Shown here: piece after piece, positions 1 through 15,458 of the stretch
How positions within the stretch are numbered: position 1 is the first letter of the stretch
Layout: every line of letters starts with the position of its first letter
IMG/VR virus record: IMGVR_UViG_2778261544_000011
Span: 1 to 24,068 of that record
From: a virus
Taxonomy: Duplodnaviria; Heunggongvirae; Uroviricota; Caudoviricetes
DNA length: 24,068 bases
Direction: 5' to 3' (one strand)
Notes under the pieces: generated by a model
Seen by the model: only the letters and a program-made list of their open reading frames with translations
Told to the model about the DNA's origin: nothing
Databases searched by the model: none
Made by a program: the position numbers and the translations under genes

Positions 1-70
1 ATGAAGATTTTAGCTAACTTTATTGGTGAGGTTTTACCTCACTCCTTACCAAGGTTTTTCTCCCAACTAA

Positions 71-110
71 AGCCCCGCATCGTTCCCCCGGTCGGGGCTT
101 GTTCTTATAT
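71..110 (+). terminator. Possible intrinsic terminator-like hairpin (AGCCCCG...CGGGGCT) followed by a moderately T-rich tract
   Basis: Inverted repeat at 71-77/91-97 followed by tgttcttatatttg; no plus-strand gene visible upstream inside the window. Confidence 0.25.
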
Positions 111-219
111 TTGTCTGTGTAAAATCTAATTTTGCGTCCTGCTACTTTTATAATTTGTTCTTTGCCTGATATTCTAAACATCATGTTATGTTTGTATTTA
201 GAGTCTTATCAATGTAAAT

Positions 220-259
220 AATTTTATTTTTTGAAAAATGAGGGGCATAAGCCCCTCAT
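220..259 (-). terminator. Rho-independent terminator downstream of the major head gene
   Basis: Hairpin ATGAGGGGC-ATAA-GCCCCTCAT at 238-259; on the minus strand it is followed by TTTTTCAAAAAATAAAAT, immediately after the CDS stop at 265. Confidence 0.6.
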
Positions 260-264
260 AGTTA

Positions 265-1161
265 TCAGATGAATGGTGAAACAATAATTTCCACGCGCTT
301 ATAATTAGGATTGTCTTCTCCGTTATCCAGATACTGACGTAACAGCAGTTTTTCCGCTGCGGCTCTTAACGATACGGGGACTACAATAACAGTAGGCACG
401 ATTCCCAATGGTTCACCGCTACTTCCCTTAACGGATAACATCCCGTCGTACACTTCATTAAATGTGGTTTCATTCAGTGTATCCCATGATGCCGCTGCGC
501 ATTGCCACATTGCATATCCAACGTTAAGACGCCCATCAACACCAAACAGAAAACGATTATTCAGAAACACATCAGTAGCGCCGGAATCAGTAACAGAAGT
601 TACAGCCATTGGACGACGAACTTGATAAATAAAAGGTTTCAATCCTTGACTACCATCAAATAAGTACCATAACGGCGTTGCACCTGCGTTTTTTTCTGGA
701 TTGCTTCCATAGAGGTTTGAATAAACGCCTTCACCATTAGGATGGTCAGTAGCAAAGAAGTTGTGCCCGTCAATTCCTTCTGATAAGTGCCCTTTCTTCA
801 TAGCTTCAAACAGTAACTTATCAGGGAATGCAGCTGCTTTGCGCCCGTACTGTTCAAAAACCATTGAATACTTACCATAATCATTATCTTCAAAATCCTC
901 ACGTTTAATTTGAATGCTGCTTTCAAACGTTTTATTTTTCAGAAAATAATCACGGGTTGACAGTGATTTTAACTGTCGGTCGTTTAACCACTCTTTGATT
1001 TCCGGGAAATCTTCGAGGAAGCCATAAGCACTAACTGCCGATGAAGACGTTACTTCTGAAGCAATCGTTGGATGTACAGGATTGTAGGCTTTTTTTCCTG
1101 ATTCAAACCTGGCATTAAAAGCGATAGTAGCATCAGCAATTACACAATTAATATCTTTCAT
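265..1161 (-). CDS. Mu-like prophage major head subunit (gpT-like)
   Basis: 298-aa ORF; sequence recalled as resembling Mu-like gpT major capsid proteins; lies directly downstream of an I-like protease gene with a small overlap, the Mu head-gene order. Confidence 0.6.
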   Translation of the reverse strand: MKDINCVIADATIAFNARFESGKKAYNPVHPTIASEVTSSSAVSAYGFLEDFPEIKEWLNDRQLKSLSTRDYFLKNKTFESSIQIKREDFEDNDYGKYSMVFEQYGRKAAAFPDKLLFEAMKKGHLSEGIDGHNFFATDHPNGEGVYSNLYGSNPEKNAGATPLWYLFDGSQGLKPFIYQVRRPMAVTSVTDSGATDVFLNNRFLFGVDGRLNVGYAMWQCAAASWDTLNETTFNEVYDGMLSVKGSSGEPLGIVPTVIVVPVSLRAAAEKLLLRQYLDNGEDNPNYKRVEIIVSPFI

Positions 1162-1972
1162 TTTCTTTTCCTAAAGCTATCAAATAGTCTTCTTCGCTTA
1201 CACCTGTAATGCGGCAAACAGCCAGTTGCGATTCAGTAAGCGTTCTCGGGGGTTCTTTACCTTTTACACTTACAGCCCTAGCAAAGTGTAAAAAATTACT
1301 CGTCGATTTTTCCTGCATATCAGCAAACTTCCTGAATGCATTTTCTCCAACACTTGAACACATGGACAGAAGAATATTCCGCTGGGCCGGACAGAAAACG
1401 GCTTTTTCGATATATTCATTTACAATCTGACTATGTTGTTCAGCTTGTCTTTTATTTAACGCTGTCAGCACTTCTTCAAGTGAATTAATCTCCTCCATGT
1501 TAAGTGCCAGTGCGATTTTGCTAATCGTTTGCTGAGTATTTAGTGCCGTTAGTTTTAGATTTGGTTTATTCGTTAACGCCACGCTAACGAGTTCCAGTAT
1601 TTCACCATCCTGAGAATGACGGAAAGCCGGTGAAAGGTATCTGTATTCACGGGATGTGATGAAATCTATTGCTCGTGGGGTCCATTCAACTTTTCCCCAT
1701 ACAGAACCATCATTACGAACAGCAACGTCATTAATCCATCCGGCGGCAGGAGCCTCGCCACCTTTGGGGGCAGTAACTTCTGTAGAATGTTCATAATCAA
1801 CAACCAGCGACATCCCCCGACCAGAAAACGCCTGTTTAATGCTCTGCGGATCCTTGAGCGTCCAGTGCCTTCCGTCACGCCCTTTAATTTCTGGTCCAGC
1901 TGGTAACAACTCAACCCATTCAGGAGGAGTCTTATCACCCGACAAATCAGTACATAAAGCAATTACGTTCAT
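1148..1972 (-). CDS. Mu-like prophage protein I-like (head maturation protease/scaffold family)
   Basis: ORF 1148-2005; the codon at 2005 is TTG, so the preferred start is the ATG at 1972 preceded by AGAGGAA; resemblance to Mu-like protease I family from memory; overlaps the gpT-like gene. Confidence 0.5.
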   Translation of the reverse strand: MNVIALCTDLSGDKTPPEWVELLPAGPEIKGRDGRHWTLKDPQSIKQAFSGRGMSLVVDYEHSTEVTAPKGGEAPAAGWINDVAVRNDGSVWGKVEWTPRAIDFITSREYRYLSPAFRHSQDGEILELVSVALTNKPNLKLTALNTQQTISKIALALNMEEINSLEEVLTALNKRQAEQHSQIVNEYIEKAVFCPAQRNILLSMCSSVGENAFRKFADMQEKSTSNFLHFARAVSVKGKEPPRTLTESQLAVCRITGVSEEDYLIALGKENERY

Positions 1973-1997
1973 TAGTTCCTCTGTTATTGAGTTAACC

Positions 1998-2038
1998 CCC
2001 TTCAAAACCCCTTCAAAAACGCCGTAGCGCCTTCAAAG
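1998..2038. repeat. Three direct copies of CC(C)TTCAAA(A) across the start region of the I-like gene
   Basis: cccttcaaaa (1998-2007), cccttcaaaaa (2008-2018), gccttcaaag (2029-2038) read directly from sequence. Confidence 0.5.
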
Positions 2039-2200
2039 ATATGAAGGTAAGGTGTTTGCCCATCATGAGCCAAAACACAGCCGTAATGCGTTTGAGGCAA
2101 TTCACATTTGTTAGGTGCGAAATACCCCTGATTCTATATTCATGCATTAAGTGTTTTGCTGTCAGCATCATTAGCAAATGTTCATTGCTTATCATTAACG

Positions 2201-2929
2201 TTAATTTAAGCCATAATCGCCAATGAGCGCCCTTACATGTTTTATTGTTGTGTATATCGATTTACCAGACTCTCCATACTTAATAGCCAGTTCAGCAGGA
2301 GACATAACATAACTATCTGCATACATATCTGCTTTTTTTATTATTCTACTCAGTGAGTCGGCCTTAGGTAAATAAAACTGGATTCCGCCTACAACTTCCA
2401 GAAATGCTTTTGTTGCAATAAATGTTTTTGTCGTGCCATTTACTTCTTCTTGTGGGTCTACTCCAGTTTTTTTTAATGCCGCCTCAATAGCCCCCATAAT
2501 CATAGTCACACTTTCTGGAAGAATCTTTGTTTCTTTTCTCAATAAAGCGATAATAGCAGTTTTGCGGATATGCTTAATCGGACCACCACTAAAAAAATCC
2601 GGTTCAAATTTCATTGCGTCAAGATAGAATGTTTGTTTTCCGCAAATAGACATAAATTCATTAAAGAGAGCGGTGCCTGCGACATTACAAAAAACATCAA
2701 TTTCGCACTCGCCACTCTGTTCATGTTTCACTGCGTGAAATTGTTTTTCAATCAATTTCACATGCTCACTGACTTCATTATAATTACATGCATATCCCAT
2801 TTTACTGATATAAGACATAACATCACAGATATCACGAGAAAAGCATGAAGAAACAATGAATTTATTTATCGCTGTAATATCATTGTGTGGCGGCGTTAAC
2901 ATGAGATTTTTAAAGGTTTGTTTAGCCAT
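2201..2929 (-). CDS. Hypothetical protein, AT-rich orphan gene (243 aa from the ATG at 2929)
   Basis: ORF 2201-3058; internal ATG at 2929 is preceded by GAGAAG; visibly AT-rich relative to flanking phage genes; no family recognised. Confidence 0.5.
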   Translation of the reverse strand: MAKQTFKNLMLTPPHNDITAINKFIVSSCFSRDICDVMSYISKMGYACNYNEVSEHVKLIEKQFHAVKHEQSGECEIDVFCNVAGTALFNEFMSICGKQTFYLDAMKFEPDFFSGGPIKHIRKTAIIALLRKETKILPESVTMIMGAIEAALKKTGVDPQEEVNGTTKTFIATKAFLEVVGGIQFYLPKADSLSRIIKKADMYADSYVMSPAELAIKYGESGKSIYTTIKHVRALIGDYGLN

Positions 2930-3007
2930 TATCTTCTCGCTTAAGCTTTTGCATATACCTGTGTACATTTGAGCGCGATGCGCGGTAGCCAATGCTTGCA
3001 GCAAACT

Positions 3008-3047
3008 TAACGTTATCCGCAATGTTACGATAACGATTATTGCGGAT
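3008..3047. promoter_or_regulatory. Nested inverted repeats (TATCCGCAAT...ATTGCGGATA and CGTTATC...GATAACG), operator-like, upstream of the orphan gene
   Basis: Perfect 10-bp inverted repeat separated by about 15 bp, roughly 80-120 bp upstream of the 2929 start codon; not followed by a T-tract on either strand. Confidence 0.3.
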
Positions 3048-3189
3048 ATGGGAATCAAAAATAAGTTTATCCCCGATTGTGATAAAACATAATTTTTTCA
3101 AAAAAGAACCATCTCCGTTTGCTCCGGATGCTGTGAGATTACATGGGAATTTTGGGGAAGATAGATTTACCGTTTTCCATGAAGTATGC

Positions 3190-3194
3190 ACGGA
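3190..3194. repeat. 5-bp target site duplication ACGGA (left copy) flanking IS2
   Basis: acgga at 3190-3194 immediately outside the IS2 terminus at 3195; identical copy at 4526-4530. Confidence 0.85.
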
Positions 3195-3205
3195 TGGATT
3201 TGCCC

Positions 3206-4111
3206 CTATATTTCCAGACACCTGTTATCACTTAACCCATTACTGGCCTGCTGCCGTAGATATTCCCGTGGCGAGCGATAACCCAGTGCACTATGCGGAT
3301 GCCATTCGTTATAATGCTCGAACGCCTCTGCAAGGTTCTTTGCTGCCGTTAACCCGTCTGGTTTAGGCATGACACTGATGTAGTCACGCTTTATCGTTTT
3401 CACGAAGCTCTCTGCCATGCCGTTACTCTCCGGACTCCGCACCGCCGTGTTCTTCGGTTCAAGCCCCAACATCCGGGCAAACTGCCGTGTTTCATTAGCC
3501 CGGTAGCATGAACCATTATCCGTCAGCCACTCTACTGGAGACGCCGGAAGCTCGTTGCCGAAGCGGCGTTCCACCGCTCCCAGCATGACGTCCTGTACTG
3601 TTTCACTGTTGAAGCCGCCCGTAGTGACCGCCCAGTGCAGTGCCTCACGGTCACAGCAGTCCAGCGCGAACGTGACTCGCAGTTTTTCTCCGTTATCACA
3701 GCGGAACTCGAACCCGTCAGAGCACCATCGCTGATTACTTTCTTTCACAGCCACTCTGCCGGTATGTGCCCGTTTCGATGGCGGTACAGCGAGTTTTCGC
3801 TCAAGCAACAGCGCATTCTGGCGCATGATCCGGTAAATACGTTTGGCATTGATCGCAGGCATACCATCAAGTTCGGCCTGTCTGCGAAGCAGCGCCCATA
3901 CCCGACGATAACCATATGTGGGCAGCTCTCCGATAACATGGTGTATACGGAGAAGCACATCCGTATCATCTGAGTGACGGCTGCGGCGACCATCTTTCCA
4001 GTCATCGGTTCGTCTGAGAATGACGTGCAACTGCGCACGCGACACCCGGAGACAACGGCTGACTAAGCTTACTCCCCATCCCCGGGCAATAAGGGCGCGT
4101 GCGCTATCCAC
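3206..4111 (-). CDS. insD: IS2 transposase OrfB (InsD)
   Basis: 301-aa ORF recognised as IS2 InsD from memory; DDE integrase-type sequence; overlaps the upstream insC frame as expected for IS3-family frameshifting. Confidence 0.9.
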
Positions 4112-4434
4112 TTTTTTGCACGCCCATATTCCACGGCTTCTTTAAGGAGTTCATTTTCCATCGTTTTTTTGCCGAGCAGGCGCTGGAGTTCTTTAATCTG
4201 CTTCATGGCAGCAGCAAGTTCAGAGGCAGGAACGACCTGTTCTCCTGCGGCCACAGCAGTAAGACTTCCCTCCTGGTATTGCTTGCGCCAGAGAAATAAC
4301 TGGCTGGCTGCCACACCGTGTTGCCGGGCTACAAGGGAGACCGTCATTCCCGGTTCAAAACTCTGCTGAACAATAGCGATCTTTTCCTGTGTAGTACGCC
4401 GTCTGCGTTTCTCCGGTCCTAAGACATCAATCAT
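4069..4434 (-). CDS. insC: IS2 transposase OrfA (InsC), helix-turn-helix protein
   Basis: ORF 4069-4479; start placed at [12 protein letters not shown] (ATG at 4434), giving 121 aa as in IS2 InsC. Confidence 0.85.
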
Positions 4435-4525
4435 CTGCTCTCCAATGACTAGTCTAAAAACTAGTATTAAGACTATCACTTATTTAAGTGATATTGGTTG
4501 TCTGGAGATTCAGGGGGCCAGTCTA

Positions 4526-4530
4526 ACGGA
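4526..4530. repeat. 5-bp target site duplication ACGGA (right copy) flanking IS2
   Basis: acgga at 4526-4530 immediately outside the IS2 terminus at 4525. Confidence 0.85.
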
Positions 4531-4552
4531 TATGTGCAGCAAGTGGTAGGCA

Positions 4553-4577
4553 ATAAAAAAGCCGCACGGGGCGGCTT
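4553..4577 (-). terminator. Rho-independent terminator directly downstream of the gp27-like gene
   Basis: Minus-strand reading: AGCCGC-cccgt-GCGGC followed by TTTTTTATT, starting about 8 nt after the stop codon at 4586. Confidence 0.5.
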
Positions 4578-4585
4578 TGGGATAG

Positions 4586-4948
4586 TTAATGTTTTTCGAG
4601 AAACTCTAACACTCGTTCAAGTCTGGTCCCTAATCTGTCTATCTTTGATTCAAGTTTATCAAGTCTCCTGTGCAGTTCGGCATGCTTATAACGGCGAGAC
4701 ACTTCTCCATGTTTCCTGGCTACCGAAACAGCATTGATTAAACTAATCGCATATCTGTTCAATCCGGTTTTGGATATGACCAGTTCTGAACACCCGGCTA
4801 TTACTATATCCTGATTTATGATATTTAAAATTTCAGCCTGAGAATACTTACGCGAGATAAGCATTTTATCAAGCTTCCTTTTTGTCTTTTCAGGCAGTAA
4901 TTCAACTTTTGAAAGTCTGCCTCGTTTGTTTTTTGTTTGATTTTCCAC
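4586..4948 (-). CDS. Mu gp27-like (DUF3486-type) protein, putative small terminase/DNA-binding packaging protein
   Basis: 120-aa ORF; N-terminal [18 protein letters not shown]... pattern resembles Mu-like gp27 family proteins (recalled, unverified). Confidence 0.4.
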
Positions 4949-4972
4949 TTACACCCTCACAAAAAAACATGA

Positions 4973-5254
4973 TCACTCATCACTTTGTTGGTCACAATAT
5001 TCTACTAACCGAGACATGCATTCAATAAGAGCAGGTGCTGATTGTAAGAACCCTGCCAATCGGGATATTTCCTCACCAGAATAACCACATCCCCCTCGCA
5101 ACTGATTTTCTTCCAGAAACCTACCAACAAAAGTAATCCCATTCAGTAAACTTTCTCTATGCCAGTCAGCATCAACACGTAAACCCCAGCGGCTTTCTTT
5201 GTCAGGCATGCTATTCGCGACTGCTTTCATTGACTCAAGCAAATGATTACGCAT
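4973..5254 (-). CDS. Hypothetical small protein (93 aa)
   Basis: ORF 4973-5335; ATG at 5254 preceded by strong AAGGAGG; start overlaps the stop of the upstream gene (ATGCGTAA). Confidence 0.45.
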   Translation of the reverse strand: MRNHLLESMKAVANSMPDKESRWGLRVDADWHRESLLNGITFVGRFLEENQLRGGCGYSGEEISRLAGFLQSAPALIECMSRLVEYCDQQSDE

Positions 5255-5444
5255 GGCGCACCTCCTTAGCCGGGACGCGGCCAGCAAACAGCAACACAAA
5301 ATCACGCGCCAGCATACGGCGGGCGGTTGTTTCATCGGGTGCGTTGACGGATTCGCGGTGTGGGCGGTCGTTCAGGTCGGAGCGGCGAACGACCAGAAAG
5401 TGAAAGGTAAATTCAGGGTGTAACGGGGTTGGGGTCGTAGCCAT
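5247..5444 (-). CDS. Hypothetical small protein (65 aa)
   Basis: ORF 5247-5636 (first codon GTG); ATG at 5444 preceded by strong AAGGAGG; upstream part of the ORF lacks an SD. Confidence 0.4.
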   Translation of the reverse strand: MATTPTPLHPEFTFHFLVVRRSDLNDRPHRESVNAPDETTARRMLARDFVLLFAGRVPAKEVRHA

Positions 5445-5990
5445 TCTGGCAGCCTCCTTGTACTGGTTTAAGGAGTCACCGCCTGAGTTGCTACGCTCAT
5501 AAATGGCGGTGACGCTGGCGGGGGTAGCAATACCGGCGTACAAGGAAACCGGCCAGCCTTTCGGCTGCCCCACCAGCGCCACCATAGATACAGTGCGGGC
5601 CTTGCCGCTGGGTATGGTTGCGCGATGGCATGACACAAAAAAAGACGCTGGGCGCGTCTGTGTCGCCTTGTACTGATTAAACGGGTTGCTACGCCCGATA
5701 CTCGATTCTGCCGAGTACTTTTATAAAATATCAACAACAGAATGAGTTGGCAAGTGTCTGTACGCATCAGCTATACAATGCATAAAAATACAACACACAA
5801 AGCTCATTACACATGAATTATCACACCAATTGGTTAATATCAATAAGCGACAATCATTGTATATGATACTGATTTTTATCATGTTTTACACATAAACTAG
5901 ACATTAACTGAGTTAATTTCATTGTTAATTGATATGATCCACGATTAAGAATGGCTACTTTTCGCCAAGGAATTTGCTACCCCTTACCAA

Positions 5991-6372
5991 TTATCTTGAA
6001 TAAGATAGCTTAACATACACAAATTATTTTCTTTTACCCAATACGCCACACCACCAGAGATGCGAAAAATTCACTTTAAAATCAATTTGATACACAAAAA
6101 GCAAAAACGAACACACAAAGGAAAAGATTTGTTTTTCCAGAAAAGACAAAAGAAAGCACTCCTGGATGTTCCAAGCGGCAAAGTCAAGGGCTATAGCGAA
6201 TTTGAAGCGCTTTAAAACATTCAAAACACACATCACCATTATCTTGATTGTTTTTTCGATTTTGGATAGTTGCGCTATTTGTGACCACGTTTATCTTGAA
6301 TAGTGTTATCCGTAAGTTGTTGATACCCGGCTATTCCCGTCTTTACTAATCTCTTCCCGCTTATCTTGAATA
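5991..6372. repeat. Four direct copies of TTATCTTGA(A/T)T(A) in an AT-rich intergenic region
   Basis: Copies at 5991-6002, 6239-6250 (ttatcttgattg), 6291-6302 and 6361-6372; the last abuts the stop of the GT-A-like gene. Confidence 0.6.
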
Positions 6373-6374
6373 AA

Positions 6375-7208
6375 TTACCTAGTCATATGAAGGATTTTTA
6401 CTGCAGCGTTGTTCCAGGTGACCTGATGGTGAATGCGTTTATGGCTGGCACCCATCAGTGAGATTTTTACGCACGACGGCGCATACATGACGGAATAAAA
6501 ACTTTTAACGTAGGTTCCGGAATCCAGATACAGCTCGGTCATTCCGCCGCTGTTTTTCTGCGTCTGTTTCTGCCCTAACTGGACAGCACCGATCGTCATA
6601 AACAATTCACCACGGCGACCGAGATTCGTGTACGTATTCACATCCTCGTTAATGCGCCCCATGAATGAGAACGGTCGATCAACCGAACAGATAAAGCTGT
6701 TCATTGCCTTGCGTTTCACCCATGAAGCATGGCCGCCATTGTCACCAAGAAAATCCCCGCCCTGCGACATAGCGATGGAAAGCGCAGGAATTGATTCGTA
6801 ATACGCCAGCATTTCAGAAAGGATCGCATCCAGTTTCCTTATCGGAAAATAGGCCTGGTCATAGTTGCGATCCACCCGAAACTGAAACTCGTGATAATCA
6901 TCATCGAGCTGAATGAAGTATTTACACCCGACCTTTTTTGCCAGGTCGAAACAGGCATTACGGGCGTAAAAAATTGAGCGACGATCACCGAAATTATCGG
7001 CTTCGTCAAAACGACTGGCGATTTCGGCTTTGGAAAACACCAGCACCTGTTCACCAAATTCTGCTATGTACTGATGCCGGGTTTTATCTTCATCATCAAC
7101 GACGATAAAAATTTTCCCTGTATAGCCAGCACGACGCAAAGTCCGGTAAGTCAGAACTTTGTCCGGTCGCCCATGAGTCAGAATAAAGGCGCAAAAATCA
7201 TCACGCAT
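6375..7208 (-). CDS. Nucleotide-diphospho-sugar transferase (GT-A)-like fold protein, function unknown
   Basis: ORF 6375-7226; ATG at 7208 preceded by GGGGAGGAGG; N-terminal FILTHGRPD...IFIVVDDED and later IQLDDDY resemble GT-A/NTP-transferase DxD-type motifs; no C-terminal transmembrane segment; start abuts the ParB-like stop (ATGCGTGA). Confidence 0.55.
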   Translation of the reverse strand: MRDDFCAFILTHGRPDKVLTYRTLRRAGYTGKIFIVVDDEDKTRHQYIAEFGEQVLVFSKAEIASRFDEADNFGDRRSIFYARNACFDLAKKVGCKYFIQLDDDYHEFQFRVDRNYDQAYFPIRKLDAILSEMLAYYESIPALSIAMSQGGDFLGDNGGHASWVKRKAMNSFICSVDRPFSFMGRINEDVNTYTNLGRRGELFMTIGAVQLGQKQTQKNSGGMTELYLDSGTYVKSFYSVMYAPSCVKISLMGASHKRIHHQVTWNNAAVKILHMTR

Positions 7209-7989
7209 ATTCCTCCTCCCCGCCATGCATGATCTCCACCATGCACTGCGTCATCCGGACAAAACCATTTTCAATAGCCTGCTGATAATCAATGATCACC
7301 AGTGCCGACTCTTCGAAAAGCGCCTGAACTTCAGCGGGCGCATGAGCGTAATAGTCCGCAATTCTGCTGAAATTAAATACTGTGTGGCGTTCTGCCGCAC
7401 ACAGGAGGAATTTTTCGATATCAGGCTCAAGGGACGCCGAACGTATCCGGCTGACCAGCTCCTGAGTTTTCGTATCGTCGTACAGTTCGCCGATATCCGG
7501 TTTATCGCCCGACGGCTCATAAACAGGCGTATCAATTTTCGTCGTGTACGGCTCCTCCTCATTTCCTGTACCTGGCAAAACATCCGTCAACAGTTCATCA
7601 ATTTCTGTCGGGCTGAATCCTGTCAGGGAGATATCAAAATCAGCATTGATTAGGTCCGACAGCTCCATCCGTAACAGATCTTCATCCCAGCCAGCATTCA
7701 TCGGCAGGCGATTATCTGCCAGGCGGTACGCCTTTTTCTGCTCATCCGTCAGGCCAGACAGAACAATGACCGGAACAGAATCCATTTTGAGCATTTCAGC
7801 CGCCATAACACGACCGTGACCTGCAATAATTTCGCCCTTTTCATCAATCAGCACCGGATTAGTCCAGCCGAATTGCTTAATGCTTTCTACCAGTTGTGCC
7901 ACCTGCTCAGGGCTGTGTGTCCTGGCATTGTGTGCATACGGAGACAGTTCTTGTAACGGGCGATAGACGATTTTCAATTTCTCGCTCAT
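7201..7989 (-). CDS. ParB-like nuclease domain (ParB/Srx fold) protein
   Basis: 262-aa ORF; N-terminal region with ParB N-domain-like motifs (…LSPYAHNART…GHGRVMAA…); ATG at 7989 preceded by GCGAGG. Confidence 0.7.
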   Translation of the reverse strand: MSEKLKIVYRPLQELSPYAHNARTHSPEQVAQLVESIKQFGWTNPVLIDEKGEIIAGHGRVMAAEMLKMDSVPVIVLSGLTDEQKKAYRLADNRLPMNAGWDEDLLRMELSDLINADFDISLTGFSPTEIDELLTDVLPGTGNEEEPYTTKIDTPVYEPSGDKPDIGELYDDTKTQELVSRIRSASLEPDIEKFLLCAAERHTVFNFSRIADYYAHAPAEVQALFEESALVIIDYQQAIENGFVRMTQCMVEIMHGGEEEYA

Positions 7990-8220: not shown

Positions 8221-8393
8221 AATTTTCTCCTGTTTTAATGCCCCTTGCCGCCGGGCAGTTGATCAAAGTTCATCTTGATTCGGCAAGATTTAGAATGAAT
8301 AAGATAAAATTGGCACACGCAGCAGAATTTCATGCTTTCCGGACGCTGGTGCACCCTTCATTTTTCAGCAAAATATTCTGCTATTACAGGCGA

Positions 8394-8576
8394 TCAGTTC
8401 TGCATACACTGCCGAACACCGTCGACAATTTCACAGACCTGAGAAGCTGTATCGAAAAGCTGGCGCGCTTTATCCAGGCTGACGCATCCCACCAAGAAAA
8501 AAGGCACCAATATCGCTACCAGTGCCCATTTCGCCGCCGTTCGCGGCACTCTGTGTGTCCAGTGTTTTCGGCTCAT
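8394..8576 (-). CDS. Small putative lipoprotein (possible o-spanin/Rz1-like lysis accessory protein)
   Basis: 60-aa ORF with lipobox-like LVGC after a hydrophobic stretch; lies distal to the endolysin gene; not proline-rich like classical Rz1. Confidence 0.4.
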   Translation of the reverse strand: MSRKHWTHRVPRTAAKWALVAILVPFFLVGCVSLDKARQLFDTASQVCEIVDGVRQCMQN

Positions 8577-8581
8577 GTCAG

Positions 8582-8716
8582 CTATCCACCAATCAATCCA
8601 GATAAGCTCAAGACTCTCCAGGCAGTAGCAATGAAAATGGCAACCAGCATCACTGAAAATGAAAGGCCAACAACCACACAGAGAATCCTCGCTAGTTTTA
8701 TGATGCTATCTGACAT
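8582..8716 (-). CDS. Small single-pass membrane protein (44 aa), uncertain
   Basis: In-frame ATG inside ORF 8582-8809 gives MSDSIIKLARILCVVVGLSFSVMLVAIFIATAW...; hydrophobic core; no clear SD checked. Confidence 0.25.
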   Translation of the reverse strand: MSDSIIKLARILCVVVGLSFSVMLVAIFIATAWRVLSLSGLIGG

Positions 8717-8733
8717 ATTTACCCCCGCACCAC

Positions 8734-8880
8734 TTACGATTTCACAGCAATGATCAATTTTGCCATCCCATACAGAATCGGAGACACAGCGATACCGACA
8801 GCCACCCACTTAATGGCAAAAGCCACCGCTCTGCTGATGTCATCAGTTACAGGCGCTTTCAATTCAAGGCCGTTTTTCAT
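8734..8880 (-). CDS. Small single-pass membrane protein (48 aa), uncertain
   Basis: ORF 8734-8916; ATG at 8880 preceded by GAGG; hydrophobic segment WVAVGIAVSPILYGMAKLIIAV. Confidence 0.3.
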   Translation of the reverse strand: MKNGLELKAPVTDDISRAVAFAIKWVAVGIAVSPILYGMAKLIIAVKS

Positions 8881-13974: not shown

Positions 13975-14907
13975 ATGCACAGCGTTAATTTCTATTCATT
14001 CCGCGTCTTGACCCATAAAGGCAGTCGAGCCAGCAAAAAACTTAATGAATTGGGTTTAAGTAATAAAAAAACGGCATATGAACTTTTTGTTGATTATTTT
14101 ACTCTATATAAAAACACCCCCATCGAGTTTGGCGTATCCAAAACTAAAATATCTCTGGAACAACACGCTAAACTTCACTTTGATAACTCAAAAAAAATTA
14201 TATATGGTTATGTAAAAGTTGGGAAATATGGAGAAAGCAGTGAAATAAAAGATGTAAAACTCAAAAAAATCCACTATAGGACAACTGCTTATGATGTAAC
14301 ACTCAAAGAACGTTATATTTTAATATACCTACCAGACGCCCTTGAAGAAGGAATTATTGCATTCCACTCTTGCGATAATATTTCTGCTCGAGGTGTCCTT
14401 TCTGATTCTATCACTGAATATCTAAAAAACAAATTTCAACTCGAAGCAAGAATCAATCCATTACATCATAAGAAAATCCCTCAATATATTCTCAATTCCG
14501 AATTAAAACAAATTAAGGCTCAAGGATATAAAGCACCAAAAGACATTGCTGATTCCTTTGGTCAAAACAAAACAAACATCAAGACAGACTTAATAATAAA
14601 AGCAAACGATGGCATGTTCGGAAGTTTCAGAGATTTAAGAAACAAGAATATAGGAAACATCATTGAGATTATTGAAGATAAATGTGATGCAATAAAAGTA
14701 AGCTTACAACTCGGCAGTCGGACTGTCGTTTTCAATTATGATACCATACTAAAAAAAGGAATTTCCGCAGAGTTAGATGATAATGATCTAAAAATCGACC
14801 CATTAACAGGCATACCTGATCTAACAGCACTTCATGACACGATAAAAAACCTTTCTAATGATATATTGTTAGAACTGCATAGCGGAAACAAAGGGGTGAT
14901 TATATGA
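13975..14907 (+). CDS. Hypothetical soluble protein (310 aa), RexA-like candidate, first gene of a two-gene cassette
   Basis: AT-rich ORF opposite in orientation to the flanking phage genes; ATG preceded by AAGGA; N-terminal NFYSFRVLTHKG weakly recalls the RexA N-terminus (unverified). Confidence 0.6.
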   Translation: MHSVNFYSFRVLTHKGSRASKKLNELGLSNKKTAYELFVDYFTLYKNTPIEFGVSKTKISLEQHAKLHFDNSKKIIYGYVKVGKYGESSEIKDVKLKKIHYRTTAYDVTLKERYILIYLPDALEEGIIAFHSCDNISARGVLSDSITEYLKNKFQLEARINPLHHKKIPQYILNSELKQIKAQGYKAPKDIADSFGQNKTNIKTDLIIKANDGMFGSFRDLRNKNIGNIIEIIEDKCDAIKVSLQLGSRTVVFNYDTILKKGISAELDDNDLKIDPLTGIPDLTALHDTIKNLSNDILLELHSGNKGVII

Positions 14908-15458
14908 ATAAAATAAATGTACTGGGTGTAATAATAAAACACTACAAAACAATGTCAGATCAGCGTGGAACAATGTTGATGAGCGACATTATCGTACATT
15001 TTATTGTTCCGTTATCTCTTTCTTTCGTTCTGTGCTGGACATACGGAATAATGAAACCGGCAATTGCTTCCGTCTTTGTTAACTTCGGGGCTATTACAAC
15101 AGCACTATTAATGAGTGCAGTAATAATGATTTATGAACAAAAACAAAAAACCATCACTAAGATATCAGACATAATTGAAGGAAACAAATCCCGAGACAAA
15201 TTGATATCATTAAACACTAACAAAACCATATATGAGCAGTTATGCCACAACGTCGCTTATGCAATATTAACTTCAATAGTATTGGTTATATTTTCAGTGA
15301 TAATATATTTCCTGCCTGACAATGCAGTGGATTTAATGAAATGGTATTTTCGCGCACCTGCATATATTGTTAGCTTTTTAGCCTATACATCCTTTTTTAT
15401 CACTGTTATAACGTTCTTAATGGTAATAAAAAGATTTAGCACAATTTTAGATAATTGA
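14904..15458 (+). CDS. Integral membrane protein with four predicted TM helices (184 aa), RexB-like candidate
   Basis: ATGA start/stop overlap with the upstream gene; AGGGGTG ahead of the ATG; four hydrophobic segments (about residues 26-48, 53-77, 117-137, 150-175). Confidence 0.6.
   Translation: MNKINVLGVIIKHYKTMSDQRGTMLMSDIIVHFIVPLSLSFVLCWTYGIMKPAIASVFVNFGAITTALLMSAVIMIYEQKQKTITKISDIIEGNKSRDKLISLNTNKTIYEQLCHNVAYAILTSIVLVIFSVIIYFLPDNAVDLMKWYFRAPAYIVSFLAYTSFFITVITFLMVIKRFSTILDN

Follow-up and report, generated by a model that had tools for sequence, protein, structure and literature searches.

The locus and its genes

The window analysed here, a 24,068-nucleotide stretch of viral DNA (positions 1 to 24,068 of IMG/VR record IMGVR_UViG_2778261544_000011), opens with a block of phage Mu-related genes that adjoins a Rac-like lambdoid prophage. 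Positions ~1–6387, together with ~137 bp past the left edge, are one copy of a Mu-type non-autonomous element, and it is this element and its relatives that are described below. The DNA past the edge is supplied by contig L007 of Escherichia coli assembly GCA_002229815.1, which matches the window at 100% identity over 11,161 bases. In the strand convention of the window, all the genes at issue (T, I, Mor and the Gp27-like gene) lie on the minus strand, as do the other features of the element given here, and we follow them from the L end at 6387 toward the R end beyond position 1.

The L-end region (5794..6387, minus strand) has its terminus at 6385–6387, reading inward as TGACTAGGTAATTTATTCAAGATAAGCGGGAAGAGATTAG..., and is flanked on the outside by the gene for a TET-associated glycosyltransferase of the Rac-like prophage (6388..7226, minus). 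Next come an isrK-like small RNA (5638–5718) and a C4 antisense RNA (5502–5589), which match the Rfam models RF01695 (82 bits) and RF01394 (54 bits), both above the gathering scores. An open reading frame (ORF) at 5636..5247 (PF10554), annotated elsewhere as an Ash family protein, overlaps the C4 RNA, and for that reason may not be a real gene; in the relatives, an Icd-like ORF occupies the position of this cassette. The RNAs, the 'Ash' ORF and the Icd-like ORF of the relatives together resemble the immI cassette of phage P1 (C4-icd-ant). The variable small ORF that follows (4973..5335, minus), which is 93–120 amino acids (aa) long, belongs to no recognisable family and is matched in the relatives by an unrelated 134-aa ORF, could encode an antirepressor-like effector.

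The Gp27-like gene (4586..4948, minus) starts with GTG and specifies a short, small-terminase-like protein of 120 aa (PF11985, E=1.5e-9). Its match is limited to positions 1–65 of the 173 in PF11985 and 2–67 of the 184 in phrog_426 (terminase small subunit); it thus consists of the N-terminal DNA-binding part of Mu Gp27/DUF3486 with a short helical tail, and the C-terminal ~80 aa are missing. An intrinsic terminator (4558..4578, minus) lies 8 bp past the stop codon and is kept in the E. coli element L001 and other relatives. A copy of IS2 (InsC/InsD; 3195..4525, minus) is a secondary insertion in the spacer between the Gp27-like gene and Mor: it is flanked by a perfect 5-bp target duplication, TCCGT, at 3190–3194 and 4526–4530, and is absent from the relatives, whose sequence runs colinear through the insertion site. 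The remaining intergenic DNA (2930–3189) is likewise colinear with the IS2-free relatives. The gene after it encodes a Mor-family transcription activator of 242 aa (2201..2929, minus; PF08765, E=3e-8; phrog_532, late transcriptional activator), with a unique N-terminal half and the Mor domain in the C-terminal half, which is ~93% identical to the E. coli and Salmonella copies. Between Mor and I, ~150 bp of unrelated DNA (2038..2190), delimited by alignment with L001, blast block boundaries and the gene tables of the relatives, replaces a gene for a 137–140-aa protein that is conserved in all other members.

Directly upstream of I lies a triple repeat, TTTGAAGG..TTTTGAAGGGGTTTTGAAGGGGG (1996..2037, minus), which is a candidate strong gyrase site (see below). 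Gene I encodes a capsid maturation protease/scaffold of the Mu gpI family (1148..1972, minus; PF10123, E=2e-49); its ORF spans 2005..1148, and the real start is the ATG at 1972, which is preceded by a good ribosome-binding site. The 274-aa product is intact and compares with 361 aa for Mu I and 318 aa for the I protein of the putative helper lineage introduced below: in alignment with both, the protease domain and the extreme C-terminus are kept and part of the central region is missing. Gene T (265..1161, minus) encodes an intact 298-aa major capsid protein of the Mu gpT family (PF10124, E=6e-89) that shares 99% identity with copies from Salmonella and E. coli. Nucleotide homology to the relatives, as judged by blast blocks, ends at 234; the spacer beyond T (1..233) is found only in the window copy and occupies the place of a ~1.8-kb tape-measure-like gene in the relatives.

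A conserved family of compact elements

A megablast search of 5426 complete E. coli genomes recovered the T-I-Mor block in nine, at 94–95% identity and with the same neighbours each time: the 'Ash' ORF, an Icd-like ORF, a small ORF, Gp27 (120 aa), Mor (242 aa), a 140-aa ORF, the protease and gpT, followed, where the block is undisrupted, by a ~600-aa tape-measure-like gene. The same layout accompanies T homologs of 99–61% identity in Salmonella, Klebsiella, Citrobacter, Yersinia and metagenome/IMG/VR contigs, and T homologs of 42–46% identity in Shewanella and Aeromonas. The family as we recognize it comprises members from E. coli (L001, L002, L019), Salmonella (L004, L005), Klebsiella variicola (L010), Citrobacter freundii (L012–L014), Yersinia enterocolitica (L015), Shewanella (L026, L027), Aeromonas (L028, L029) and metagenome/IMG/VR contigs (L016, L020, L021). 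Common to them is a compact order of short Gp27, Mor, the 137–140-aa gene, I, T and the tape-measure-like gene, which is unlike that of Mu in having Gp27 ahead of Mor. Gp27 is short throughout (108–120 aa), and no terL, portal, F, integrase or transposase gene is present in any member examined. Against close relatives, the ratio of nonsynonymous to synonymous substitution rates (dN/dS) is 0.05–0.12 for T, 0.07–0.11 for I and 0.17–0.25 for Mor; I and T are under purifying selection.

Two further loci were seen at the margins of the family. In a Vibrio metagenome-assembled genome (L003, 9082–12066), a T homolog of 40% identity occurs in the order I-T-Mor-Mor, and neither Mu terL nor a Mu portal gene lies within 10 kb; this may be a further, differently organized relative. 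An 8838-bp Logan contig (L030) has a member with 61% T identity beside a gene for a Rep3-type plasmid replication protein, and may thus represent an insertion in a small plasmid.

The absence of packaging genes extends to the surroundings of the window copy. Queried by tblastn with Mu TerL, portal, F, G, A and B, the 24-kb window and the 10 kb past its left edge gave no match; the same was true of queries from an intact Rac-like relative, namely its TerS, TerL, portal and minor-head proteins. Apart from the inserted IS2, nothing that Pfam, PHROG or PADLOC recognized in the element is an integrase, a transposase, a replicase or a defence protein, and PADLOC linked none of the unknown small proteins, Mor, Gp27 or the tape-measure protein to a defence system. 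An initial annotation of this locus had set it against the Mu order gp27, terL, portal, F, G, I/Z, T, which it quoted correctly, and several of its observations hold up: Pfam bears out the Gp27-like, I and T assignments, the Gp27-like gene does end in its own terminator, and tblastn found no remnant of terminase, portal or F between that gene and I or elsewhere in the window. It also reasoned from the intact target duplication that IS2 was not the cause of any loss, with which the colinearity of the IS2-free relatives agrees. Its description of the interval as holding IS2 and an AT-rich orphan gene needs amending: both are there, but the orphan is the Mor-family activator, and the interval also contains the repeat motif and the ~150 bp of unrelated DNA.

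Mu-type ends and mobility

Complete elements are 6.4–6.9 kb long (six copies measured end to end span 6440–6898 bp) and have TG...CA termini. Both flanks were available for four copies, 6760–6898 bp in length, and each of these has a perfect 5-bp target duplication (ATGGA, TCCAG, GTGTG and GTGGT). For L001, an L terminus at TGATAAATACG was considered and rejected, as it gave no target duplication; comparison with L019 placed the terminus 10 bp further out, at TGTGATGG..., which yields the perfect ATGGA. The insertion sites are unrelated to each other; among them are ddpC, the region between the art genes, an aga/sorbose phosphotransferase system operon and a cox operon. In Citrobacter, copies of one element that are 99.9% identical to each other occupy three unrelated places in the chromosome, and five of the nine element-bearing E. 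coli genomes have two copies. The contigs L020 and L016 stop at an element terminus, as expected if heterogeneous flanks produced such contig ends; contig ends of this kind are the sole, indirect hints of induction, packaging and transfer by a helper.

The end regions have arrays of repeated sites in the L1, L2, L3 and R1, R2 layout of phage Mu. A pac-like sequence, CCGGGA...CGGGA, follows the first L site and is kept in every L end; this is where pac lies in Mu. The end modules (L, ~460–590 bp; R, ~130 bp) of L001, L004, L012 and the window copy are unrelated to each other, and so are their repeated sites (GTTTCAC..CGAAA, ATGTGAAC, ATTGACA and TTCAAGATA), yet the 6.3-kb cores between such ends are 95% identical. 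Hence, the ends appear to be exchangeable modules, and their sequences suggest that they have been swapped to match different helper transposases. Taken together, it is close to certain that the family is transposable and non-autonomous.

The ends of the window copy and a putative helper lineage

The L end of the window copy has putative transposase-binding sites, TATCTTGAA, on the plus strand at 6362, 6292, 6240 and 5992, with a Mu-pac-like motif, CGGGA..CGGGA, following the first of them. The L end has no match in the phage collection. Of its first 50 nucleotides, 46 are identical to those of a Mu-like prophage in E. coli STEC388, and the repeated TTCAAGATA sites have the same spacing in the two L ends. 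Among the genes of the STEC388 prophage are those for a repressor, a Ner-like protein, MuA, MuB, Gam and Mor. More broadly, Mu-like prophages in narI, alr, fliH and nrfA have L ends that are 70–80% identical to the terminal 187 bp of the window copy. Two observations pertain to STEC388 itself: its Mu-like prophage (L009), in fliH, is disrupted by an IS66-family element, and its own copy of the element (L002) adjoins IS1 and has lost the tape-measure side.

At the other end, three inverted TATCTTGAA sites lie 52–137 bp past the left edge of the window (L007 positions 11216, 11251 and 11273). The junction at 233/234 had been considered a simple truncation of the element, and was rejected as such when contig L007 showed the genuine R end ~300 bp further on. 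This R end is 91% identical over 80 bp to that of a Mu-like prophage on plasmid pCFSAN004178P_01, where the matching end adjoins the Com and Mom-like genes. The plasmid-borne prophage is complete, at ~35 kb, has the canonical gp27-terL-portal-F-I-T order and is flanked by the 5-bp duplication TATAT.

The proteins of the element are much more distant from this Mu-like lineage than are its ends. T is 42% identical, I 31% and Gp27 44% (residues 1–67 only), and the tape-measure protein of a complete relative is 44% identical to that of the lineage; for comparison, the window T is 36% identical to Mu T, and the Gp27-like protein is 44–48% identical to residues 1–68 of the putative helper and Mu Gp27. 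At only 31–44%, the protein identity to the phage lineage that shares its ends shows that the element is not a recent deletion derivative of that lineage. Instead, judging from these sequences, the combination of helper-like cis sites with distant proteins is what would be expected of a long-standing parasite of such phages rather than of a recent deletion mutant.

A central motif upstream of I

The triple repeat upstream of I is present in every family member examined, including those of Shewanella and Aeromonas, and in complete copies is located at 0.43–0.46 of the element length. Over 43 bp it shares 95% identity with the region between F and I of Mu-like prophages, and it can be aligned in register with Mu DNA of the G-I interval immediately to the right of the annotated gyrase cut site. 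The strong gyrase site of Mu is central, depends on an essential, repeat-bearing right arm and speeds the assembly of the transpososome (PMC10052514). The family motif shares with it the central position, the place upstream of I and the phased right-arm repeats. We therefore predict from sequence and position that the elements keep an equivalent of the strong gyrase site, which would fit replication by transposition. The motif was also considered as a Mor/C-dependent late promoter, which is disfavoured by its place in Mu-like prophages (between F and I, before a terminator) and by its alignment with the Mu cut-site region; a promoter or operator role is nonetheless possible.

State of the window copy and fate of the Rac-like prophage

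Relative to complete members, the window copy differs in four respects: the IS2 insertion in the Gp27-Mor spacer, the exchange of the 137–140-aa gene for ~150 bp of unrelated DNA, the different small ORF after the C4 region and the exchange of the tape-measure-like gene for ~315 bp containing two hairpins, with the R end and its three sites intact. This last region, L007 10898–11298 (window 1–264 and the 137 bp past the edge), may reflect either decay or a natural variant without the tape-measure-like gene. Both ends are present, yet the copy has no target duplication because its flanks are non-contiguous. On the L side, the element breaks into the 311-codon glycosyltransferase gene of the Rac-like prophage at codon 274, and homology to intact Rac-like relatives breaks off within the gene, at 6387/6388; in those relatives terS, terL, portal and minor-head genes follow. 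On the R side, the element abuts the interior of ydbK, with ydbK/nifJ homology beginning at L007 11299, and the truncated ydbK is followed by ydbJ, hslJ, ldhA and ydbH. Hence, a deletion has removed all the late genes of the Rac-like prophage, terS, terL and portal among them, as well as attR and chromosomal genes nearby. The edges of the deletion coincide with the two ends of the element, an outcome that either intramolecular transposition of the Mu type or recombination of one copy with another would be expected to produce.

Some other features of the Rac-like prophage deserve mention. Within 6388–7989 (minus), a protein with a ParB/Srx N-terminal domain, which also matches a PADLOC type II methyltransferase model, is encoded next to the TET-associated glycosyltransferase; the pair is probably a DNA-modification module of this prophage. 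Between the ParB gene and the lysis genes, a 171-aa ORF (8238–8753, plus) has no Pfam or PADLOC match; in intact relatives trkG lies at about this position, and it is absent from this prophage. At 13975–15458 (plus), two genes of ~33% G+C (310 and 184 aa) run opposite to the surrounding lambdoid early genes; they too have no Pfam or PADLOC match and may represent a moron, or else a defence or accessory cassette of an unknown type.

Interpretation: probable satellites of transposable phages

The virion and replication functions missing from the family, and the match of its ends and of the motif upstream of I to Mu-like prophages, lead us to regard these non-autonomous, capsid-encoding elements as likely satellites of transposable phages. 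We propose the following life cycle. When a Mu-like helper replicates in the same cell, its MuA and MuB would bind the matching ends of the element, and the helper transposase would amplify it by replicative transposition, with the central gyrase site assisting. The Mor-like activator would then turn on the I-T(-tape-measure) genes, and the element would build its own, probably smaller, capsids on the helper portal. The short Gp27 would direct packaging from the pac-like sequence of the L end with the helper large terminase, and helper tails would finish the particle. We further lean toward a fuller proposal, namely that these are the first recognized satellites of transposable phages, a widespread Gammaproteobacterial family using helper-matched ends and a gyrase site instead of an integrase and replicase, amplified by MuA/MuB, switching helpers by swapping ends, and making their own small capsids from T and a short I, which would be filled from pac via a truncated TerS and the helper TerL.

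The initial annotation saw in the locus a Mu-like prophage with an apparently gutted head module and with I and T genes that may be decaying or co-opted; on this view, terL, portal, F and G would recently have been lost by deletion. Gp27, Mor, I and T are indeed all homologs of Mu proteins, the ends are of the Mu type, and this copy is clearly damaged by IS2 and two internal replacements. This origin is nevertheless very unlikely: Gp27-Mor-I-T without terL, portal or F is the native layout, conserved across at least seven genera and down to a T identity of 42%; Gp27 precedes Mor and is uniformly 108–120 aa; complete copies with intact 5-bp duplications occur at many sites; and the distance of the proteins from the lineage whose ends the element carries speaks against it as well. 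Nor is a decay of I and T supported: both are intact and under purifying selection (dN/dS 0.05–0.12). The same annotation took the prophage to be probably packaging-defective, and in this it was right, though not about the cause, which lies in the lost terS, terL and portal of the Rac-like prophage; the synteny comparison with Mu-like and Rac-like prophages resolves what had been read as one prophage into two entities, a Rac-like lambdoid prophage and a Mu-ended element at the deletion junction. The direct contact between the block and Rac-like genes might alternatively suggest that Gp27-Mor-I-T is itself part of that prophage, as a mosaic head module or moron. This is hardly credible given that homology to intact relatives stops at 6387/6388 inside a gene, beyond which those relatives go on with terS, terL, portal and minor-head genes, that Mu-type ends bound the block, and that the same block occurs in ddpC, between the art genes, in cox operons and elsewhere without lambdoid neighbours.

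A third alternative accepts that helpers move these Mu-ended transposons and differs on what the encoded proteins do: I, T and Gp27 might interfere or defend, by poisoning or mis-sizing helper capsids or by titrating pac or terminase, making the element an abortive 'decoy' island that is not itself packaged. It draws on the same anatomical evidence as the satellite interpretation; moreover, a Gp27 cut down to its DNA-binding half could be a dominant-negative TerS, and known satellites interfere with their helpers too (PMC10085698). We consider it unlikely in view of the tightly held size of 6.4–6.9 kb, the retention of a full capsid and protease pair along with a tape-measure-like gene, and the lack of any PADLOC match. 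Packaging of Mu begins from the L end, so the pac-like sequence kept in every L end also counts against a decoy. Interference and transmission are in any case compatible, and a decoy role can coexist with that of a satellite.

Several points weigh against the satellite interpretation. The life cycle set out above, with its mobilization by a helper, its packaging and its small capsids, is drawn from anatomy, and the gyrase-site assignment from sequence and position only. For the end type of L001, neither the 5426 complete E. coli genomes nor the phage collection yielded a matching full-length Mu-like phage, and in STEC388 the resident Mu-like prophage and the element differ in end type. The interpretation leaves the role of the tape-measure-like gene in a satellite unexplained. 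The window copy, having lost two family-conserved genes and gained IS2, may be non-functional even in the presence of a helper. Finally, the literature search in which no account of satellites of transposable or Mu-like phages came to light missed most subscription journals.

The terms 'Mu-like' and 'transposable phages' occur zero times in the satellite survey and reviews, and the family looks like an apparently undescribed kind of phage satellite dependent on Mu-like helpers. If this is true, borrowing the transposase of a helper would give satellites a new strategy of persistence, replication and spread, and the family would explain the orphan "Mu-like gpT / protease / Gp27" annotations in many Enterobacterial, Shewanella and Aeromonas genomes. 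In annotation, such loci should not be labelled as degraded Mu prophages. The family also offers natural material on the evolution of MuA end recognition, of pac recognition and of the strong gyrase site, as well as on capsid sizing in the Mu T/I system. Through scattered insertion and adjacent deletions, the elements remodel genomes—in this instance lambdoid late genes and part of ydbK were removed.

Comparison with known systems

Phage-inducible chromosomal islands of the capsid-forming type (cf-PICIs) resemble the family in being small and chromosomal, in having their own major capsid protein, prohead protease and small terminase, and in depending on a helper for virion parts (PMC10085698). 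Their gene set includes integrase, AlpA-type regulator, primase-replicase, terL, portal and head-tail adaptors, and att sites are where they insert (PMC10085698). In contrast, Pfam and PHROG searches of all ORFs of the Salmonella element L004 and of the window copy found no integrase, no AlpA/MerR/Stl regulator and no primase-replicase, and of the packaging and head set the family has capsid and protease and lacks terL, portal and head-tail adaptor or connector. Mu-type ends and 5-bp duplications at scattered sites further distinguish it, and tail genes of the kind represented by its tape-measure-like gene are excluded in the detection model for cf-PICIs. Of the features that define PICIs in general (integrase, regulator, primase-replicase, capsid-morphogenesis gene and terS), terS is represented by a terS-like fragment only, and there is no integrase or replicase.

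The P4-like satellites are defined by integrase, psu, delta, sid, alpA, epsilon and the alpha primase (PMC10085698), and no such families were matched in the element by Pfam or PHROG. P4 is, like these elements, an Enterobacterial satellite with helper-supplied virion proteins and control by RNA or small regulators, and it redirects capsid size; unlike them, it encodes no capsid protein. The minimalist islands of the Vibrionaceae (PICMIs) are likewise very small and reduced in gene content, and are described as lacking capsid-remodelling genes (PMC10803314), whereas the present family encodes a capsid protein and protease and moves by transposon ends.

With Mu and Mu-like prophages (Muvirus and relatives), the family shares the TG...CA ends, the L1–L3 and R1, R2(, R3) sites, the pac-like CCGGGA..CGGGA after L1, the 5-bp duplications, the central gyrase-site-like motif upstream of I and homologous Gp27, Mor, I, T and tape-measure proteins. 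It differs from them in size (6.4–6.9 kb against 35–37 kb), in its Gp27 of 108–120 aa and shortened I, and in the lack of c/ner, A, B and gam, of the lysis genes, of terL, portal, F and G, and of connector and tail genes, the tape-measure-like gene aside. By the measure of an autonomous Mu-like prophage, the ends and duplication are present, while tblastn detects neither MuA nor MuB in the window or in a complete element, rve and Mu-transposase domains are missing from all family members save for the inserted IS2, and the full head module and tail are absent. Mini-Mus, which like the family have both Mu ends without the full phage genome, are packaged by helper Mu. Given A and B, they replicate by transposition (PMC10052514). 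They are, however, engineered or selected deletions of Mu. The family, in contrast, is found in nature as a conserved lineage whose own I, T, Gp27 and tape-measure proteins have diverged (31–44% identity to the putative helper lineage), with a distinct gene order and regulatory parts foreign to Mu in the form of the C4 and isrK RNAs.

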